Positions 9,306 through 16,332 of a stretch of DNA of 24,038 nt are shown piece by piece. The stretch is from Myxococcales bacterium. Its GTDB lineage: Bacteria > Myxococcota_A > UBA9042 > JABWCM01 > BTVJ01. The DNA lies in assembly GCA_045863395.1 (NCBI GenBank), contig BTVJ01000105.1, positions 1 through 24,038 of the forward strand, in the 5' to 3' direction. A program made the translations under genes and the position numbers. The notes under the pieces are model-generated. The model had not been told where the DNA came from. It made no database searches and saw nothing but the letters and a program-made list of their open reading frames with translations. How positions within the stretch are numbered: position 1 is the stretch's first letter; each line of letters begins with the position of its first letter.

Positions 9306-9329
9306 GGGCGCCTCCTTCTAGGGGCGCCC
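9306..9329. terminator. Possible hairpin between convergent genes
   Basis: GGGCGCCTC-CTTCTA-GGGGCGCCC stem-loop just after rpsT. There is no U-tract. Confidence 0.3.
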
Positions 9330-11747
9330 GCAGTCGCAGGCCAGCGCCTCCCCCGCCGACCGGACGGCCGGCTCCGCCACGACCCGCATGGACCCCGTGG
9401 CCGCCGTGCTGTGCCCCGCCCCCTTCCACGCGCAGCGATCCATCCAGCCCTGCACCTCGCCGCGGAGCCCCAGCGCACCTTCGGGGAGGCTCGTGTCCGC
9501 GATGGCGAAGTGCGCGTGTGCCGCTTGCGGGTCCCCCGCGAAGTAGAGCGCCACGCCCAGCATGCGCTCCCGCTCGGCGGTGACCGTCCGCGGCTCGTCT
9601 GCCATGCGAGCCCGGCGGAGCGGCTCCAGGGCCTCGGCGTGGCGCCCCTCCACGAACAGGCGGCGGCCATACAGATAGGCGACCAGCGGGTCTCCGGGGG
9701 CCGCCTCTGAGAGCGACCGCAGGAAGGCGAGCGCCTCCTCGGTCTTGCGCGGCGTGGTCAGCGCATCGCGCAGGCCGTCACGGACGGTCGGGTCCGGGTG
9801 GGCGAGGGCGCGCAGCTTCACGTCGATGCCGCGGAGGCTCCCTTGATCGAGCGGGGCCGACCGCAGCTCCTCCCACGCCGTGCGGGCCGCGTCCACGTTG
9901 CCGGCGCGCCAATCCGCGTCCGCGAGCTGGTCGCGGAGCGCCGCCTTCAGGAACATGCCGGCGCGGTCCGAGGCGAGCACCTCGGCGACCAGGGCGCGGC
10001 CCTCCTCGTCGCCCGCCGCGAGCAGCACGCTGGCGAGCGCCGCCTTCTTGCCCGGCTCGTCGGGGGTCCACCGCAGCACCGTGCGCCGGATGTCCGCCGC
10101 TCGCCTCAGGTCGCCACGCCGGAACGAGCGGTCCGCCTCCCGCTCCAGACCCGCCACGACGATGGGGCAGACCCGCTGGAGCACGGGCTTGCGGTCGAAG
10201 GTGAAGCGGGCGCGCTCCAGATCCTCGGGCTCCAGGGGGACGCGCGAGCGGTCACGCAGGAAGTCCTTCCACTGTGTCACGAGCGCGTCCATGGGCTCGC
10301 CGAAGGCCGCATGGAAGTCGCCCGACCCGTAGAGGCGGAGCACGGCGGGCATGCCCCGCTCGTCCATGAGCCACCGCACGAGGGAGCCGGCGGTGGTGTA
10401 GGCCGAGCCCCCGAAGGTCGTCAGATAGCCCTGTGGGCCCATGATTCGCGCCAGATCCGGCAGAATTCCAAGCTCCAGCATGGCGGCGCTCCACTGGTGG
10501 GGGGTCAGGCGGCCCCGATCCCACTCGATCGCCGTCGCGAGGCCCTCGACCAGCGCCATGTGGGGGAGCACCCAGTACTGAGCGGTGACGTGGAGCGGGC
10601 CGGGGGCGTACCCTCCGGCAAAGACGTGGGCCAGCTCGTGCTCGAGGATGCCGCTCCCGTAGGGGAGCCGCCCCAGGTGGATCTGGTGGAGCCAGGGCTT
10701 GGCGACGTAGACCTTGTCGGCGCCCATCAGGCGGCGGCGCTGGGCGGCGCTCCCGTAGACGAAGGACTCGATGCGCACCGGGTGGGGGCCCATGAGGGCG
10801 GCGAGGCGCTGCCAGCGGTACTCGTGGTCCTCCGCGATCCACGCGATGTCCTTGACGAAGCGCGGGTCGTCCGCGGGGTACCAGATGGTGACGTGCTCCG
10901 TGTCGTGGCGCCCGCCCAGCTCCCGGCGGATGTCGCCGGCGCTCACCTCCCAGCCGAGCTGGCCGCGGAAGCCGAAGAGGGTGGCCGAGACGGCGAGGGC
11001 CAGGGCGGCGGGGACGAGGGCGCGGCCGCGGAGGTTGGTGAAGCGTGCGCGGAGGGCGCCGGGGGCCAGGGCTGCGCGGGTCAGGAGCAGGACGGCCGCG
11101 AGCTGCACCACGTTGTTCATGCGGTACAGGACGAGGGTGCCCGAGATGCCGATGACGTCGTCGTAGATGGCCCCGATGAGGACGCCGAAGAAGGGGCTGT
11201 ACGCGAAGATCTGCGGCGCCGTGTAGAAGTGCCACGCGAGCCACGCGAAGGACGCGAGGGTGCCCACGATGAACAGCGCCGTCCCCGCCGCGCTCCGGCG
11301 GGTCCAGAGCCCGGCGGCGACCCCGAAGCCCGCTGCGAGGGACATGCTGATGAGCGGGCCTACGAACCAGAAGGCCACGCCGCCCGCGTAGTCGCAGACC
11401 TTCACGCGGAGCGCGTTGGCGCTGATCACGAGCAGGGGCAGGTGCGCGAGGATCAGCGCCGCCCCGACGGCGCCCCGCAGCAGCGTGCCGAGGGTGGCGT
11501 CGGGCTGCTCCCGGCGCGCCACCTGCACCACGCCGACGCCGACGTGGGCGGCGGCGAGGGACCCGACCAGCGCCGTGACGAGGCAGAAGTAGTAGCTCAA
11601 GCTGTCGAAGCCCGGCAGGAAGGCCAGGTACGCGGACAGCGCGACGAGGAGCGCGGCCCAGAGCCGGAAGCGCAGCATCCGGGTGGCGCGCCCGAGCATG
11701 GCGCGGGCGGCCGCGTACTTCGCGGCGACGGCTTGCGGGTCTCGCAT
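9318..11747 (-). CDS. Membrane-anchored gluzincin (peptidase MA-like) protein with C-terminal TPR-like repeats
   Basis: About 250 N-terminal residues carry several hydrophobic helices. ILEHELAHVF is followed by ALVEGLA (HExxH...E). The C-terminus is helical and TPR-like. Confidence 0.75.
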   Translation of the reverse strand: MRDPQAVAAKYAAARAMLGRATRMLRFRLWAALLVALSAYLAFLPGFDSLSYYFCLVTALVGSLAAAHVGVGVVQVARREQPDATLGTLLRGAVGAALILAHLPLLVISANALRVKVCDYAGGVAFWFVGPLISMSLAAGFGVAAGLWTRRSAAGTALFIVGTLASFAWLAWHFYTAPQIFAYSPFFGVLIGAIYDDVIGISGTLVLYRMNNVVQLAAVLLLTRAALAPGALRARFTNLRGRALVPAALALAVSATLFGFRGQLGWEVSAGDIRRELGGRHDTEHVTIWYPADDPRFVKDIAWIAEDHEYRWQRLAALMGPHPVRIESFVYGSAAQRRRLMGADKVYVAKPWLHQIHLGRLPYGSGILEHELAHVFAGGYAPGPLHVTAQYWVLPHMALVEGLATAIEWDRGRLTPHQWSAAMLELGILPDLARIMGPQGYLTTFGGSAYTTAGSLVRWLMDERGMPAVLRLYGSGDFHAAFGEPMDALVTQWKDFLRDRSRVPLEPEDLERARFTFDRKPVLQRVCPIVVAGLEREADRSFRRGDLRRAADIRRTVLRWTPDEPGKKAALASVLLAAGDEEGRALVAEVLASDRAGMFLKAALRDQLADADWRAGNVDAARTAWEELRSAPLDQGSLRGIDVKLRALAHPDPTVRDGLRDALTTPRKTEEALAFLRSLSEAAPGDPLVAYLYGRRLFVEGRHAEALEPLRRARMADEPRTVTAERERMLGVALYFAGDPQAAHAHFAIADTSLPEGALGLRGEVQGWMDRCAWKGAGHSTAATGSMRVVAEPAVRSAGEALACDCGRP

Positions 11748-11753
11748 CGGGGG

Positions 11754-12614
11754 CTACCGGGCGCCGAGGCGGGAGAGAGGGACGACGGGGGAGGCGGACG
11801 GCAGCGCCTCGTTCAGGCTCCCCATGCGGTACCCTTGGAGATCGACGGCCACGTAGAGGAAGCCCGCGGCCTTGCACGCGGCTACCAGGGCGTCGCGGAT
11901 CTCCGGCGAGACCAGCCGCGGCAGGTCGTCGGGCGGCACCTCGATGCGGACCACCGTGTCGTGCCAGCGCGCGCGCATCTGGGGGAAGCCCAAGGCGCGC
12001 AGGGCCTGCTCGCAGCGGTCCACCTGGGCGAGGCGCTCGGCCGTGATCTCCGTGCCGTAGGGGAAGCGGGAGCCGAGGCAGGCGAAGGCCGCCTTGGTCC
12101 ACGTGGGCAGGCCGAGGCGCCGCGACAGCTCGCGGACGTCCGCCTTGGTGAGCCGCGCCTCGATGAGGGGGCTCCGCACTCCCTTCTCTGCGGCCGCGAG
12201 GCGGCCGGGACGGTAGTCGCCGAGATCGTCCAGGTTGCAGCCGTCGACGATGGTGGCGATGCCCAGCTCGTCTGCTCTTTGGCGGCACAAGGAGTAGAGC
12301 TCCGTCTTGCAGTGGTAGCAGCGATCCTTCGGGTTGGTGCGGTAGCCCTCGATCTCGAGCTCGTTGGACCGCACGGTCACGTGGCGCACGCCGAGGTGCT
12401 CGCCCAGGGCGCGCGCGTCCTCCCACTCCCGGTCGGGCAGGGTCTCGCTGAGCGCCGTCAGCGCCGTGCAGCGGTCGCCGAGCACGCGGGAGGCCACCGC
12501 CAGCAGCAGGGCGGAGTCCACGCCGCCAGAGAAGGCGACCAGCACCGAGTCCAGCTCCGCCAGGAGGCGCTCCAGCTCCGCGAGCTTGTCGTCCAGGGTC
12601 GTCGTCGGGGTCAT
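11754..12614 (-). CDS. larE: LarE-like ATP-dependent sulfur transferase (PP-loop, TIGR00268-type)
   Basis: VAFSGGVDS PP-loop, NPKDRCYHCK, DDLGDYRPG, ACLGSRFPYG, DLQGYRMGSLNE. ATG 12614 overlaps the upstream stop. Confidence 0.9.
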   Translation of the reverse strand: MTPTTTLDDKLAELERLLAELDSVLVAFSGGVDSALLLAVASRVLGDRCTALTALSETLPDREWEDARALGEHLGVRHVTVRSNELEIEGYRTNPKDRCYHCKTELYSLCRQRADELGIATIVDGCNLDDLGDYRPGRLAAAEKGVRSPLIEARLTKADVRELSRRLGLPTWTKAAFACLGSRFPYGTEITAERLAQVDRCEQALRALGFPQMRARWHDTVVRIEVPPDDLPRLVSPEIRDALVAACKAAGFLYVAVDLQGYRMGSLNEALPSASPVVPLSRLGAR

Positions 12615-13039
12615 GGGCGCTCCTCGTAGCGGTGGGTGGTGTCGTCCCAGGCGAACAGGCGAGCGTCGGCAGTGCCATCCCCGAGCCCGATCACGACGTA
12701 GGTGAGGCCGGGCCAGAGCGGCTCGCCCAGCGGCGCGGCCATGGCGACGTCTTCTGGCGAGAAGCGCGCGTCCCCCGCCGGGTGGGAGTGGTAGACCGCG
12801 ACCAGGGAGCCCTCGTGGGCCATCAGGACGCGCGGGTCGATGAGGTACGCGGTGCGCGAGGTGCGGGGGAAGGTGTCCGGGTCCGCGGCGTGCCAGGCGT
12901 CCGCCACGTTCTCGCAGGGGAGCAGGGTCAGCGGGTCGCCGCGGAGCACGAGCCCGCAGCACTCGTTCGGAGCCTCTGCGCGGGCGTGGACGCGCATCGC
13001 GTCGAGGAGGCCCGCGCGCTCCAGGTCGTGCAGCGTCAC
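12611..13039 (-). CDS. JAB/MPN+ (M67, Mec-like) metallopeptidase
   Basis: PNECCG catalytic Glu and complete JAMM motif YHSHPAGDARFSPED. GTG 13039 overlaps the upstream TGA. Confidence 0.9.
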   Translation of the reverse strand: MTLHDLERAGLLDAMRVHARAEAPNECCGLVLRGDPLTLLPCENVADAWHAADPDTFPRTSRTAYLIDPRVLMAHEGSLVAVYHSHPAGDARFSPEDVAMAAPLGEPLWPGLTYVVIGLGDGTADARLFAWDDTTHRYEERP

Positions 13040-13608
13040 GGGGCCTCGCAGGTGCATGTGTGCTTGGGGGCCGGCCGGGTCGCGCCGCTCGGCAGCACGA
13101 CGACGCTCGGGCGGGGGTGCCCGAGCAGCGCCAGCAGCACCTCGCTGGCCGCCCAGGCGCCGGCAAGCGCGGCGGTGGCCTCGTCGGGCGCCCACGGGTG
13201 GGTGGCGCATCGCGGGCAGCCGTCCTCCTTGGTGCGCAGCCACGCGAGGAGGACGCCCTCTCCGGCGGGGGCGCCCACAGCCAGGAGGGGGGCGCCCCCG
13301 GCGGCGTCCGTTGCGGCGCGGGCCCCGACTTGTCCGAGCGCCACCACCACGTCCCAGGAGCCTTCCGCGGTGGTGACGGCCACGTCCGGGTTCAGGGCGC
13401 GCAGGCGGGCGTCGAGGCCGTCCGGGGCGCCGAGGAGACCGAGGGTGCCGACCCCGGCGGCCGCCAGGTAGACCAGGGCGGTCTCGGCGCCGGCGGAACC
13501 GGCCACCAGCACGCGGGAACCGAGCAGCCGGGCCTGCCCCACGCCGCCCACCTCGCGCAGCAGGATGTGCCGGGCGTAGCGCTGGATCTGGTCCTCCCGC
13601 AGCGTCAC
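13036..13608 (-). CDS. Degenerate ThiF/MoeB (E1-like) protein lacking ATP-binding motifs
   Basis: QIQRYARHILLREVGGVGQARLLGSRVLVAG, YLAAAGVGTL and LRALNPDV are MoeB-like. There is no GxGGLG and no DxDxVxxxNLxRQ. CPRC and a terminal CTC are retained. Confidence 0.8.
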   Translation of the reverse strand: MTLREDQIQRYARHILLREVGGVGQARLLGSRVLVAGSAGAETALVYLAAAGVGTLGLLGAPDGLDARLRALNPDVAVTTAEGSWDVVVALGQVGARAATDAAGGAPLLAVGAPAGEGVLLAWLRTKEDGCPRCATHPWAPDEATAALAGAWAASEVLLALLGHPRPSVVVLPSGATRPAPKHTCTCEAP

Positions 13609-13823
13609 GGGCGCTCCACCACGAGGCGGTAGAGCTCTCCGTCGGGGCCCTCCTCGATGACCGGGTAGCCGTCCTCCCGCAGGCTGCGGGGCACGTTGCG
13701 GGATGGCTCACCGACCCGCATGACGACGACCAGGCGCTCCCCGGGGGCGAGCGCCTCCAGGGCGAGCTTGGTGCGCACGTAGGTGATGGGGCAGGTGTCC
13801 CGGGTGATGTCGAGGGTGTTCAT
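13605..13823 (-). CDS. TusA/SirA-family sulfurtransferase (72 aa)
   Basis: MNTLDITRDTCPITYVRTKLALEALAPGERLVV...NVPRSLREDGY (LD....CP motif). ATGA and GTGA overlaps on either side. Confidence 0.88.
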   Translation of the reverse strand: MNTLDITRDTCPITYVRTKLALEALAPGERLVVVMRVGEPSRNVPRSLREDGYPVIEEGPDGELYRLVVERP

Positions 13824-14500
13824 GAGGGGCTCCAGCAGGCGCGGCAGGTGGGGTTCTTCGGTACCGCGATGCGCCGGGCCTCTCCAACGAGGGCATCGTG
13901 TACCAGGATGGCGCCGGCGAGGGCAGGGCGCTCCCCCCGCAGGATGCGCAGCACCTCGCCCGCCTGGAGCGCGCCGATGACCCCCGCCATGGCGCCGAGC
14001 ACCCCCGCCTGGGCGCACGTGGGGACCGTGTCGGGCGGGGGCGGCTCCTCGAAGAGGCAGCGATAGCAGGCGCCGCCGGGCATCACGGTCATCACCTGCC
14101 CGGCGAAGCGCAGGATGCCCGCCACCACGAAGGGGACGCCAAGGGCGACGCAGGTGTCGTTGAGCAGGAACTTGGCGTCCAGGCTGTCGGTGCCGTCGCA
14201 GACCACGTCCCACCCGGCGAGGAGCGCCATGGCGTTGGCGGCGGTCACCCGGACGGCGTGCTGCTCGACGCGGCAGTCCGCGATGGCGGCGATGCGGCGG
14301 GCGGCGGCGACGACCTTGGGGGTGCCGATGTCCTCGGTGGCGTAGAGCACCTGCCGCTGGAGGTTGGTCAGATCCACGCGGTCGTCGTCGGCGATGCCCA
14401 GGGTGCCCACACCGGACCGCGCCAGGATCTCGCACAGCGGGGCGCCGAGGCCGCCGGCTCCGACGACGAGGCCGCGGGCGTTGTGGAGGTGCGGGGTCAT
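13820..14500 (-). CDS. HesA/MoeB/ThiF-family adenylyltransferase (E1-like), N-terminally short
   Basis: VVGAGGLG, DDDRVDLTNLQRQ, PKV, DGTDS, CYRC, PTCAQAGVLG, CRAC. Confidence 0.92.
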   Translation of the reverse strand: MTPHLHNARGLVVGAGGLGAPLCEILARSGVGTLGIADDDRVDLTNLQRQVLYATEDIGTPKVVAAARRIAAIADCRVEQHAVRVTAANAMALLAGWDVVCDGTDSLDAKFLLNDTCVALGVPFVVAGILRFAGQVMTVMPGGACYRCLFEEPPPPDTVPTCAQAGVLGAMAGVIGALQAGEVLRILRGERPALAGAILVHDALVGEARRIAVPKNPTCRACWSPS

Positions 14501-14518
14501 CGGGTGGTCACGGGTGGG

Positions 14519-15133
14519 TCAAAGGGCTGCACGCGCTTCCAGCGCCGCCGTGTACTCGCGGACGCTCTGGCTCGTCATGGGCCGGTCCACGAAGGAGGCC
14601 AGCTCCACGAGGTCGATGCCCGGGAGCGCCTCGCTACGTGGCGCCTGGACGTACTCGTCGCCGCGCAGGATCCACGCGGAGATGCGCCCCTTGCGCCAGA
14701 CCCAGACCTCTGCCACGCCGAGCTTCCGATACACCTCGAGCTTGTCGAGCCCGCCGGAGGTCCAGATCACCTCGATGGCCAGGTGGGGGCGGCTGGCCGG
14801 GCCCTCGGTGAAGATCCAGCACTCGTCGGGCTCGGCGCCTGCCTGCTTCGCCTTGTCCTTGAGGGTCCAGGAGCCGACGGTCTTGAAGTCGCGGCCGGTG
14901 TGGAGGCAGTAGGCCTCGACGAGGCACCCGATGGTGGACTTGATCGCTTCGTGCGTGTCGGACGGGGACATGATCTCGACCACCCCCTCGTGGTAGGTGA
15001 TGCGCGGCGCCGAGTGGTCGCCCCGCATCTTCAAGATGCGCAGGTAGTCCGTCCAGGAGGCGCGCAGGGTCACGAACTGGTCACCGACCGGGGAGTCGTC
15101 GTCGCGGGTCAGGTTGGCGGCTGGGGCACTCAT
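14519..15133 (-). CDS. Uma2-family (DUF820) PD-(D/E)xK endonuclease
   Basis: EIMSPSDTHE, AEPDECW, PHLAIEV, KLEVYRKLGVAEVWVW. Confidence 0.9.
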   Translation of the reverse strand: MSAPAANLTRDDDSPVGDQFVTLRASWTDYLRILKMRGDHSAPRITYHEGVVEIMSPSDTHEAIKSTIGCLVEAYCLHTGRDFKTVGSWTLKDKAKQAGAEPDECWIFTEGPASRPHLAIEVIWTSGGLDKLEVYRKLGVAEVWVWRKGRISAWILRGDEYVQAPRSEALPGIDLVELASFVDRPMTSQSVREYTAALEARAAL

Positions 15134-15140
15134 GTCGCGG

Positions 15141-15170
15141 AGTCTAGCGCACAGAACCCCGGCCCGTCGA
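15141..15170 (-). promoter_or_regulatory. Putative promoter giving a leaderless Uma2/E1 operon transcript
   Basis: Minus strand TCGACG (15170-15165), 18 bp, TAGACT (15146-15141), then 7 nt to the ATG. No SD sequence. Confidence 0.5.
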
Positions 15171-15262
15171 GGGTTCGCCGTGAGCTGAGCGCGTACCCCC
15201 GCCGTTCCGCGCTTCCTCGTGGGGTGCCTGTCGCACAGGATGGCTGCCCGTCCGCCCCGCCC

Positions 15263-15291
15263 TTGCCACCCCCGCGGCCCCCCGCTATGCT
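15263..15291 (+). promoter_or_regulatory. Putative sigma70 promoter for holB
   Basis: TTGCCA (15263-15268), 17 bp, TATGCT (15286-15291), 9 nt before the ATG. Confidence 0.5.
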
Positions 15292-15300
15292 CCCCGGTCC

Positions 15301-16332
15301 ATGGCCACCGGCTTCGACGGCATCCGCGGCCACGCCCGCGTCATCGACACGCTCCAGCGCGCCATCCGTGGCGACACGGTGGCGCACGCCTACCTGTTCG
15401 CGGGCCCGGAGGGGGTCGGTAAGGAGCTGGTCGCCCGCACCTTCGCCGCGGCGCTGGTCTGTGATCGCAGGCCCGACGGGCCGTGCGGCGTCTGCTCGGC
15501 GTGCGTGCGCGCGGGCCACGGCTCCCACCCGGACGTGGTCACCGTCTGGCGCACCCGCCTGGAGCGCAAGAGCGACGAGTGGGTGGAGACGGTGGTGCAG
15601 TTCATCACCATCGACCGCATCCGCGAGGTCTCGAAGGTGGCGCGCTACTCGCCGGTGGAGGCGCGGCAGCGGGTCATCCTGATCCGCGAGGCGGAGACGA
15701 TGAACGAGCCCGCGGCCAACGCGCTGCTCAAGACCCTGGAGGAGCCGGTCTCCGCGACCGTGTTCGTGCTCCTCACCGCGCGCCCGCACCTGCTGCTGCC
15801 GACGATCCTGAGCCGGTGCCAGCGGGTGTCCTTCGGCGCCCTGGACCGGGCGTCCATCCGCCAGATCCTCACGGAGGACCTGCCCGAGGGGCGCCGAGTG
15901 CCCGCGGACAAGGCGGACCTGGTCGCCGCCATGGCCGACGGCAGCGTGAGCGCGGCCCTCGCCCTCGTCGACACGGACGCCATCGGGCACCGGGAGGAGT
16001 GGCTCGACCGCTTCGTGTCCCTGAACGACGCCGCGCCGGACCAGGTGCTCGCGGTGGCGGCGGCCATGGCGGAGGACAAGGCCCGCATGGTGGTGGTCCT
16101 CGACCTCCTGCGCCTGTGGGTGCGGGACCTGCTGCTGGCACAGGCGGGGGCGTCGGCGGAGCTGCTGACCAACCACGACCGGGCGGCGGCGGTCGCTGCG
16201 CTGGCTGCGCGCCGGCCGGCGGACCGTCTGCTCGCGGACCTGGATCTGGTATCAGAGACCGAGCGCGCCCTGCGGGGCAACGTGAACCCGCGCCTGGCGG
16301 CGGAGCGACTGCTCCTGCGCATGGCCGCGTAG
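15301..16332 (+). CDS. holB: DNA polymerase III delta prime subunit
   Basis: HAYLFAGPEGVGK, Zn motif C...PCGVCSAC, HPDV, AANALLKTLEEP, LLPTILSRC. Confidence 0.95.
   Translation: MATGFDGIRGHARVIDTLQRAIRGDTVAHAYLFAGPEGVGKELVARTFAAALVCDRRPDGPCGVCSACVRAGHGSHPDVVTVWRTRLERKSDEWVETVVQFITIDRIREVSKVARYSPVEARQRVILIREAETMNEPAANALLKTLEEPVSATVFVLLTARPHLLLPTILSRCQRVSFGALDRASIRQILTEDLPEGRRVPADKADLVAAMADGSVSAALALVDTDAIGHREEWLDRFVSLNDAAPDQVLAVAAAMAEDKARMVVVLDLLRLWVRDLLLAQAGASAELLTNHDRAAAVAALAARRPADRLLADLDLVSETERALRGNVNPRLAAERLLLRMAA

Follow-up and report, generated by a model that had tools for sequence, protein, structure and literature searches.

How does a bacterial sulfur-carrier operon function when it encodes two E1-like proteins but no ubiquitin-like carrier, and why does it end in larE? 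These questions are raised by five genes on the minus strand of contig BTVJ01000105.1 of a Myxococcales bacterium (assembly GCA_045863395.1; genome G000), which we analyzed in a window comprising the whole stretch of 24,038 nucleotides. The cluster has the following composition:

13820..14500, minus strand: E1a, a MoeB/ThiF-type adenylyltransferase of 226 aa (PF00899, 226 bits, and motifs)
13605..13823, minus strand: TusA/SirA-family protein of 72 aa with a CP motif at C11 (PF01206)
13036..13608, minus strand: E1' (also E1b), a degenerate E1-fold protein of 190 aa (motifs, alignment, and structure model)
12611..13039, minus strand: JAB/JAMM metalloprotease of 142 aa (PF14464; E26 and HSH-x7-S-x2-D from residue 84)
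11754..12614, minus strand: LarE sulfur insertase of 286 aa (TIGR00268; SGGVDS P-loop; C99/C102/C179)
13605..13608, minus strand: 4-bp overlap of the TusA and E1' genes, the site of the carrier gene in relatives, empty here

Judged from their sequences, E1a and E1' are predicted to be complementary halves of a MoeB-type enzyme, the segment missing in one being retained in the other, and together they probably make up a one-site heterodimer of an active and an inactive subunit, in the manner of Aos1-Uba2. The operon type was already known; the split E1 appears to be new and has good comparative support. We consider it probable that the E1a/E1' heterodimer, together with JAB and TusA, serves carriers encoded in trans and that larE is a co-expressed consumer rather than the dedicated target.

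Complementary motifs of the E1 pair

E1a retained all catalytic motifs [GAGGLG(14), D38/D40, NLQRQ(46), K62, D105, CxxC(145), C162, and CxxC(219)], corresponding to the MoeB/ThiF set of GxGxxG, D-x-D, NLxRQ, Lys, DxxD, and two CxxC, and scored below every MoeB/ThiF equivalog cut-off. It had no N-terminal RYxR[QH] arginine-finger segment (the region of MoeB Arg14) of its own. Its alignment to ThiF and MoeB began at target residues 28–30, just before the glycine loop, and an N-terminal extension is excluded because an in-frame TGA (14519–14521) lies seven codons upstream of the start. E1' kept this segment as RYARH, with Arg13 (codon 13570–13572) aligned to MoeB Arg14, and lacked both the GxGxxG ATP loop and the NLxRQ loop. 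PF00899 matched only residues 11–58 of E1', below the cut-off, and its structure model (mean predicted local distance difference test score of 75) gave a template modeling score of about 0.6 to ThiF and MoeB. E1' therefore has the properties of an inactive adenylation domain (IAD), namely a second E1-fold subunit without an ATP site but with the arginine. The CYS-domain insertion and E2 partner of canonical conjugating E1s were missing: E1a, at 226 aa, had no large insertion relative to ThiF, and no E2 family was found among the 29 window open reading frames (ORFs) scanned. The first-pass annotation had correctly listed an E1 and a second E1 without recognizing them as complementary halves.

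Distribution and fusions of the E1 pair

For comparison, 55 JAB loci were read from 106 genomes of the same class. A rapidly built tree of 80 E1 cores placed E1a of G000 with 49 relatives (Shimodaira–Hasegawa-like approximate likelihood ratio test support of 87). RYxR[QH] before the glycine loop was absent from 48 of these 49 operon-type E1s, the remaining one (L051) being ambiguous, and the arginine segment was recognized in each of the 30 remaining E1s, by pattern in 28 and by visual inspection in 2. NLxRQ, Lys, DxxD, CxxC, and a further Cys were kept in 50/50 E1a rows, and the arginine in 21 of 22 profile-found E1' proteins. The E1' gene lay upstream of JAB in 38 of the 39 same-class loci holding E1a and also in 6 of the 16 without it; all four genomes of genus g8 that were fetched kept an unlinked E1a alongside an E1'-JAB fusion. 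Outside the class, where the loci were top search matches rather than a random sample, 23 of the 24 E1a-bearing loci also held E1', which was missing from an operon whose E1 was of the ordinary kind (L448). Three counts were set aside as circular: Arg13 invariance in alignment A1, whose rows were chosen by motif, GxGGLG in 50/50, and CxxC...C in 43/43 LarEs. A further alignment (A4) was discarded, its E1' rows having been placed on the wrong half. A phylum search with the E1' profile mostly matched N-termini of ordinary E1s, and no E1' count was taken from it.

The two halves also occurred as single chains in three families, as E1'-E1a in G179, G129, G134, and G267 and in reverse order, E1a-E1', in G116. 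At the loci concerned, the fusions stood alone, with no carrier or JAB nearby:

L376:5939-7159, also L377, L434, and L437: E1'-E1a single-chain fusion
L378:7898-9055: E1a-E1' single-chain fusion

In G179 and G116, the fused E1 was the only MoeB-type match and had no JAB beside it, and the only carriers found were ThiS- and MoaD-like, free, and GG-ending. For a 1:1 pairing of separate E1a and E1' subunits, the fusions give only indirect support.

Fusions of E1' to other partners bear on a different assignment, in which E1a forms a homodimer and E1', rather than being its partner, acts as an adaptor for JAB or the carrier. In P0011 E1' was fused to a carrier, and throughout family f7 it was fused to JAB (e.g., L039:7302-8360 and L060:7053-9041); the arginine finger of homologous enzymes is reportedly non-essential (PMC13139853, in the part considered). 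However, an adaptor would leave unexplained the E1a fusions in both orders across three families, the exact match of missing and retained segments, and the absence of E1' where the operon E1 is canonical (L448), and we hold this assignment to be very improbable. One E1'-JAB fusion of family f7 had added PAS and GGDEF domains. Among the named sources of E1'-like proteins were Kofleriaceae and Candidatus Binatia, and the phylum Myxococcota was assigned from the tree label of L194 together with the source names of homologues.

A pared-down sulfur-carrier operon

The five ORFs and four consecutive 4-bp overlaps described in the first-pass annotation were confirmed, all on the minus strand, with overlap sequences ATGA, GTGA, GTGA, and ATGA and a GC content at third codon positions of 0.93–0.95. 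Its statement that no small ORF ending in Gly-Gly lies among them also held between 11754 and 14500, where no GG-ending stop-to-stop segment of at least 50 aa (up to three further residues allowed) was found. By a crude count, 616 of the 1778 closely spaced same-strand gene pairs of the genome (35%) allowed a start at −4, and four in a row would arise by chance in about 1.4% if independent; because such starts are this frequent, the overlaps are ordinary in this genome, and the coupling is what an operon would show and no sign of a dedicated pathway. An assembly error at the carrier-less TusA/E1' junction is ruled out, since contigs from two other runs spanned it gap-free, one from another study (11000–14935) and one from an RNA library (12833–15600), the latter kind indicating coverage of the region and not transcription.

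A CysO/SAMP-like carrier (ending in PAIAGG, often with a short tail) was encoded in 43 of the 55 same-class JAB loci, and TusA in 6. The first-pass annotation had directed attention to ubiquitin-like carriers and cysteine synthases near these genes in relatives; the carrier is indeed present in most of them, and here it is left to genes in trans. The order in other classes was mostly cysK-E1a-carrier-E1'-cysM-JAB, a CysO/CysM-type operon, so that the placement of E1/JAB genes in ordinary CysO/CysM clusters, which that annotation had named as counting against its proposal, applied to most loci in other classes but not to all. More distant JAB relatives (80 loci, 30–39% identity, mostly Actinomycetota) were accompanied by a cysteine synthase in 67 and a carrier in 44, and by larE in none. 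In G001, of the same order as G000, the genes ran cysK-E1-TusA-carrier-E1'-JAB-radical SAM, and no orthologues of this carrier or radical SAM protein were found in G000. Carrier-less E1/E1'/JAB clusters without larE beside them made up 8 of the 39 same-class loci with this E1; G025 had E1-TusA-E1'-JAB on a contig that stops shortly past JAB, and its genome lacked larE. By gene content and order, the G000 cluster is a pared-down form of a Myxococcota sulfur-carrier operon (cysK-E1-carrier-E1'-cysM-JAB).

An NF045502 radical SAM gene directly followed JAB in 17 of the 55 loci (L037, L044-L047, L049, L051, L053, L054, L056-L058, L061, L063, L278, L291, and L297). The encoded protein, of ~420 aa and weakly similar to MSMEG_0568-family proteins and LipS2, may be a sulfur-inserting enzyme fed by the carrier; in several loci, genes for a DASS transporter and a ferredoxin came next.

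Carriers and sulfur genes elsewhere in the genome

The earlier suggestion of a carrier encoded in trans was borne out: none lay in the operon, and three ThiS-family carriers were found elsewhere, namely a MoaD-MoaE fusion, a ThiS that ends in GGGSHG and is encoded ahead of thiG, and, on contig C69, a carrier ending in GG. The first two have a blocked C-terminus. The third was rejected as an orthologue of the operon carriers, having about 30% identity and adjoining an unrelated gene; this carrier (C69:33111-33371) is translationally coupled to an upstream gene labeled by eye as BNR-repeat beta-propeller-like.

A canonical rhodanese-MoeB was not found in G000, and E1a was the only MoeB-type enzyme found. 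Relatives carry the canonical enzyme, and its flanks in G001 and G033 map to contig C1 of G000, where the gap-free 9.3 kb between the flanking genes contained no E1. The other PF00899 matches in the genome were TcdA-like, conflict-system-like, or spurious. Both moaA and thiG were present, together with four IscS/NifS-like genes and six cysteine-synthase-like matches; neither cysteine synthase nor sulfate-assimilation genes occurred in the window. Apart from JAB, which carried the JAMM/MPN+ signature (Glu plus H-S/T-H-x7-S-x2-D), the genome gave no strong PF14464 match and a single weak one, on contig C64. Without an ordinary MoeB in G000, and given its MoaD-MoaE fusion and its tail-extended ThiS, the E1 pair and JAB likely serve these carriers in trans.

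The link to LarE

LarE matched TIGR00268 with 325 bits (cut-off, 150) and carried SGGVDS and CxxC...C (C99, C102, and C179), the sequence marks of the [4Fe-4S] type; it is predicted to be of this type and to need an outside sulfur source. Its gene is the only larE of G000, and larB-larC lie on contig C40 (7454–9699). No LarA N-terminal domain was found genome-wide; LarA-independent users of the nickel-pincer cofactor exist, according to the part of PMC13524815 considered.

The first-pass annotation had proposed a cluster dedicated to LarE or to an unknown thio-cofactor. This was not upheld, as larE occurred in 0/55 same-class JAB loci and the carrier was lost also without larE. Of 106 same-class genomes, 37 had larE, 55 had JAB, and 11 had both, never on one contig; JAB was thus absent from 26 of the 37 larE genomes and larE from 44 of the 55 JAB genomes.

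In two other families, larE directly followed E1a/E1'/JAB genes (G229, G201, G309, and G305 of family f51 and G181 of f49). The larE loci of G229 and G201 held no carrier gene, and TusA was encoded directly upstream of larE in G229 and G305. The cluster of G305 and G181 was a broad sulfur operon with genes for Rrf2, cysteine synthases, a further pyridoxal phosphate enzyme, a carrier, NIL, JAB, DsrE, and TusA and, in G181, also ATP sulfurylase. LarEs of the cluster-linked genomes formed a clade apart from that of G000 (the G181 row was dropped by the motif filter). Among close kin, four E1'/LarE protein pairs had identical longest-contig values (6934, 19866, 87995, and 128716); taking each pair as lying on the same contig, the link indirectly appears to recur in close kin. 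One of these close-kin cases, P0244, held JAB and LarE in one 473-aa frame, seen once, and may be a true fusion or reflect a lost stop codon; no further JAB-LarE fusion appeared in a word-limited search of representatives only, which is a weak test. A 470-aa ORF of the window (11754–13166) was rejected as an off-frame extension, its N-terminal part being unlike the JAB part of P0244. The possibility that the larE linkage is unique to this genome, raised in the first-pass annotation, was dropped once these loci, the close-kin pairs, and P0244 had been found, the linkage recurring in five genomes of two other families.

Such neighbors were absent from 18 of 20 larE loci sampled in other classes and from 80/80 metagenome larE loci, many of them short; the metagenome LarE scan gave no close kin (best, 58%). 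In four genomes of family f11 (L189, L190, L191, and L081) and 3 of the 80 metagenome loci (L094, L098, and L109), larE came directly after a cysteine synthase gene, which suggests general recruitment of larE to sulfur operons. Two loci of this kind had a second cysteine-synthase-like gene further upstream.

These loci bear on the view that the module feeds LarE, a carrier (MoaD, ThiS, or that of C69) thiocarboxylated by means of JAB and the E1 pair, or TusA persulfide, loading the fifth sulfur on the [4Fe-4S] cluster. The five linked genomes (two without a carrier), the four close-kin pairs with in-frame P0244, and TusA directly before larE argue for it, as does the precedent of TtuB loading TtuA (PMC9283937, in the part covered). 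Nevertheless, we regard it as unlikely in view of the zero count among the 55 same-class JAB loci, the 26 larE genomes without JAB and 44 JAB genomes without larE, the lack of such neighbors in most loci of other classes and in the metagenome loci, the single JAB-LarE fusion (a weak test), the f11 loci after cysteine synthase, and the in vitro service of Thermotoga LarE by IscS described in the same source. A dedicated LarE sulfur path is therefore only partly supported. A bolder version, in which Myxococcota independently evolved a two-gene active/inactive E1 and two lineages recruited it with JAB and TusA to load [4Fe-4S] LarE via a borrowed ubiquitin-like thiocarboxylate, strikes us as distinctly doubtful.

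The gene on the other side of larE is relevant to a further alternative:

9318..11747, minus strand: 809-aa predicted membrane protein without a Pfam match (context, outside the sulfur module)

This gene is the stable downstream neighbor of larE in the class, adjoining it in 13 of 26 larE loci of relatives. The adjacency of larE to the JAB cluster could thus be a by-product of deletion, loss of the radical SAM and carrier genes having brought the cluster against an older larE-809aa-rpsT block to which it has no functional tie, with the E1 pair perhaps a relic. Consistent with this, the radical SAM gene that follows JAB in 17 of 55 loci was not found in G000, and in G001 the JAB-radical SAM contig stops 103 nt past its radical SAM gene, and the contig with larE breaks off about 250 nt ahead of that gene; the two shared no exact overlap. 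A relic, however, would not be expected to keep all catalytic motifs intact or to be the only MoeB-type enzyme found in a genome with moaA and thiG, and the larE link recurs in another class; we consider this scenario quite improbable. Hydrophobic segments lie in the N-terminal part of the 809-aa protein, which also has an HExxH motif (HELAH) and gave a weak match of TPR-like type; throughout the class, its gene keeps its place beside larE or close to the JAB cluster and rpsT.

Proposed mechanism and points against it

In the reading that we favor, with the heterodimer serving carriers in trans, JAB would cut MoaD-MoaE and ThiS after Gly-Gly; a Deinococcus JAMM protease is reported to cleave a MoaD-MoaE fusion (PMC8832034, in part). 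The E1a/E1' dimer would adenylate the processed carriers, with E1' Arg13 reaching into the E1a ATP site. TusA, charged by cysteine desulfurase, may be the persulfide donor in place of a rhodanese domain, a role proposed here from the relevant part of PMC1779556, and the carrier thiocarboxylates would feed molybdopterin and thiamine synthesis. Service of several carriers by one E1 is known from mycobacteria, where one E1 serves both MoaD and CysO (PMC3227635, in the part consulted). LarE would probably draw on the same persulfide pool.

Several observations weigh against this reading. G229 and G201 keep E1a/E1'/JAB beside larE despite a canonical E1 and no CysO-like carrier, and a housekeeping need alone is therefore incomplete as an explanation; like G000, both have MoaD fused to MoaE, which accounts for JAB being kept there. 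The G000 assembly is 97% complete, and a MoeB or carrier may lie in the unassembled part. Among the comparative data, L435 has E1a without E1', L294 has no detectable motif, the E1' of L375 (G229) has His for Arg, and the E1a clade has a support of only 87 in a quick tree. Moreover, the arginine finger is reported to be non-essential in MoeB and ThiF (PMC13139853), and APPBP1 R15A merely slows NEDD8 activation (PMC6031683), as far as the parts covered of these papers go; E1a might therefore work as a homodimer.

Relation to known systems

The closest described operons are the class 4 ThiS/MoaD + E1 + JAB operons (rows 4b, 4c, and 4e; Iyer, Burroughs and Aravind 2006, PMC1779556), including the CysO/CysM/JAB route. 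The rhodanese-less E1, SirA/TusA, and JAB of classes 4c and 4e are all present in the G000 cluster, and the operons of relatives share the carrier and cysteine synthases as well. In contrast, the G000 cluster has no in-operon carrier and no cysteine synthase or sulfate genes, its E1 is split into two genes, and larE comes next; a second, degenerate E1 and larE are both absent from the part of that account covered.

The active site of MoeB and ThiF receives the arginine from the adjacent subunit, and that of yeast Tcd1-Tcd2 from the inactive one (PMC13139853, in the part seen). SAE1-SAE2 (Aos1-Uba2; PMC12355090) and NAE1-UBA3 (PMC6031683) likewise combine an arginine-giving inactive subunit with an active one, according to the relevant parts of these papers. 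Unlike these eukaryotic heterodimeric E1s, the pair described here is made up of minimal MoeB-like domains and belongs to a sulfur-carrier setting in which no E2 was detected close by, and the likeness probably arose by convergence. BilD, a bacterial single-chain E1 composed of an IAD and an active adenylation domain, also takes its arginine from the inactive domain and has the same order as the fusions of G179, G129, G134, and G267 (PMC10557695, as far as covered). BilD differs in having an E2 partner, a role in anti-phage conjugation, and a CYS insertion of ~80 residues, whereas the pair here is mostly encoded by two genes; other known bacterial E1-like proteins are homodimers, according to the part of the BilD paper considered. 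Thermotoga maritima [4Fe-4S] LarE, studied with TtuA/TtuB, shares SGGxDS, CxxC...C, and larB/larC elsewhere in the genome with the present case; its in vitro donor was IscS, and the part of that study covered (PMC9283937) describes no carrier-to-LarE transfer.

In the literature searched, which included few subscription journals and no supplements, we found no description of a two-gene active/inactive bacterial MoeB or of a LarE fed by a carrier or by TusA; Burroughs, Iyer and Aravind (2009), surveying the E1-like superfamily, may mention the degenerate paralog. An active/inactive split is the hallmark of eukaryotic E1s, Tcd1-Tcd2, and single-chain BilD, and bacterial sulfur-carrier E1s have been described as homodimers. 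If the assignment is true, a minimal, phylum-wide two-gene E1 that is fused both ways would be a small natural model for the origin of this asymmetry, and many short genes labeled "hypothetical" or "partial ThiF" would receive a corrected annotation. The loci also name candidate in vivo sulfur donors for [4Fe-4S] LarE, namely TusA, DsrE, and the MoaD/ThiS thiocarboxylate.

Neighboring gene and an additional E1-like cassette

Upstream of E1a, the position of cysK in G001 is held by another gene, of which tblastn found no second copy in the genome:

14519..15133, minus strand: Uma2-family nuclease-like gene (context)

On contig C64 (34219–36889), two ORFs, one JAB-like and one further small, come before a divergent E1-like gene, and cas1/cas2-like ORFs lie close by, as labeled by eye; this arrangement resembles a conflict-system cassette.

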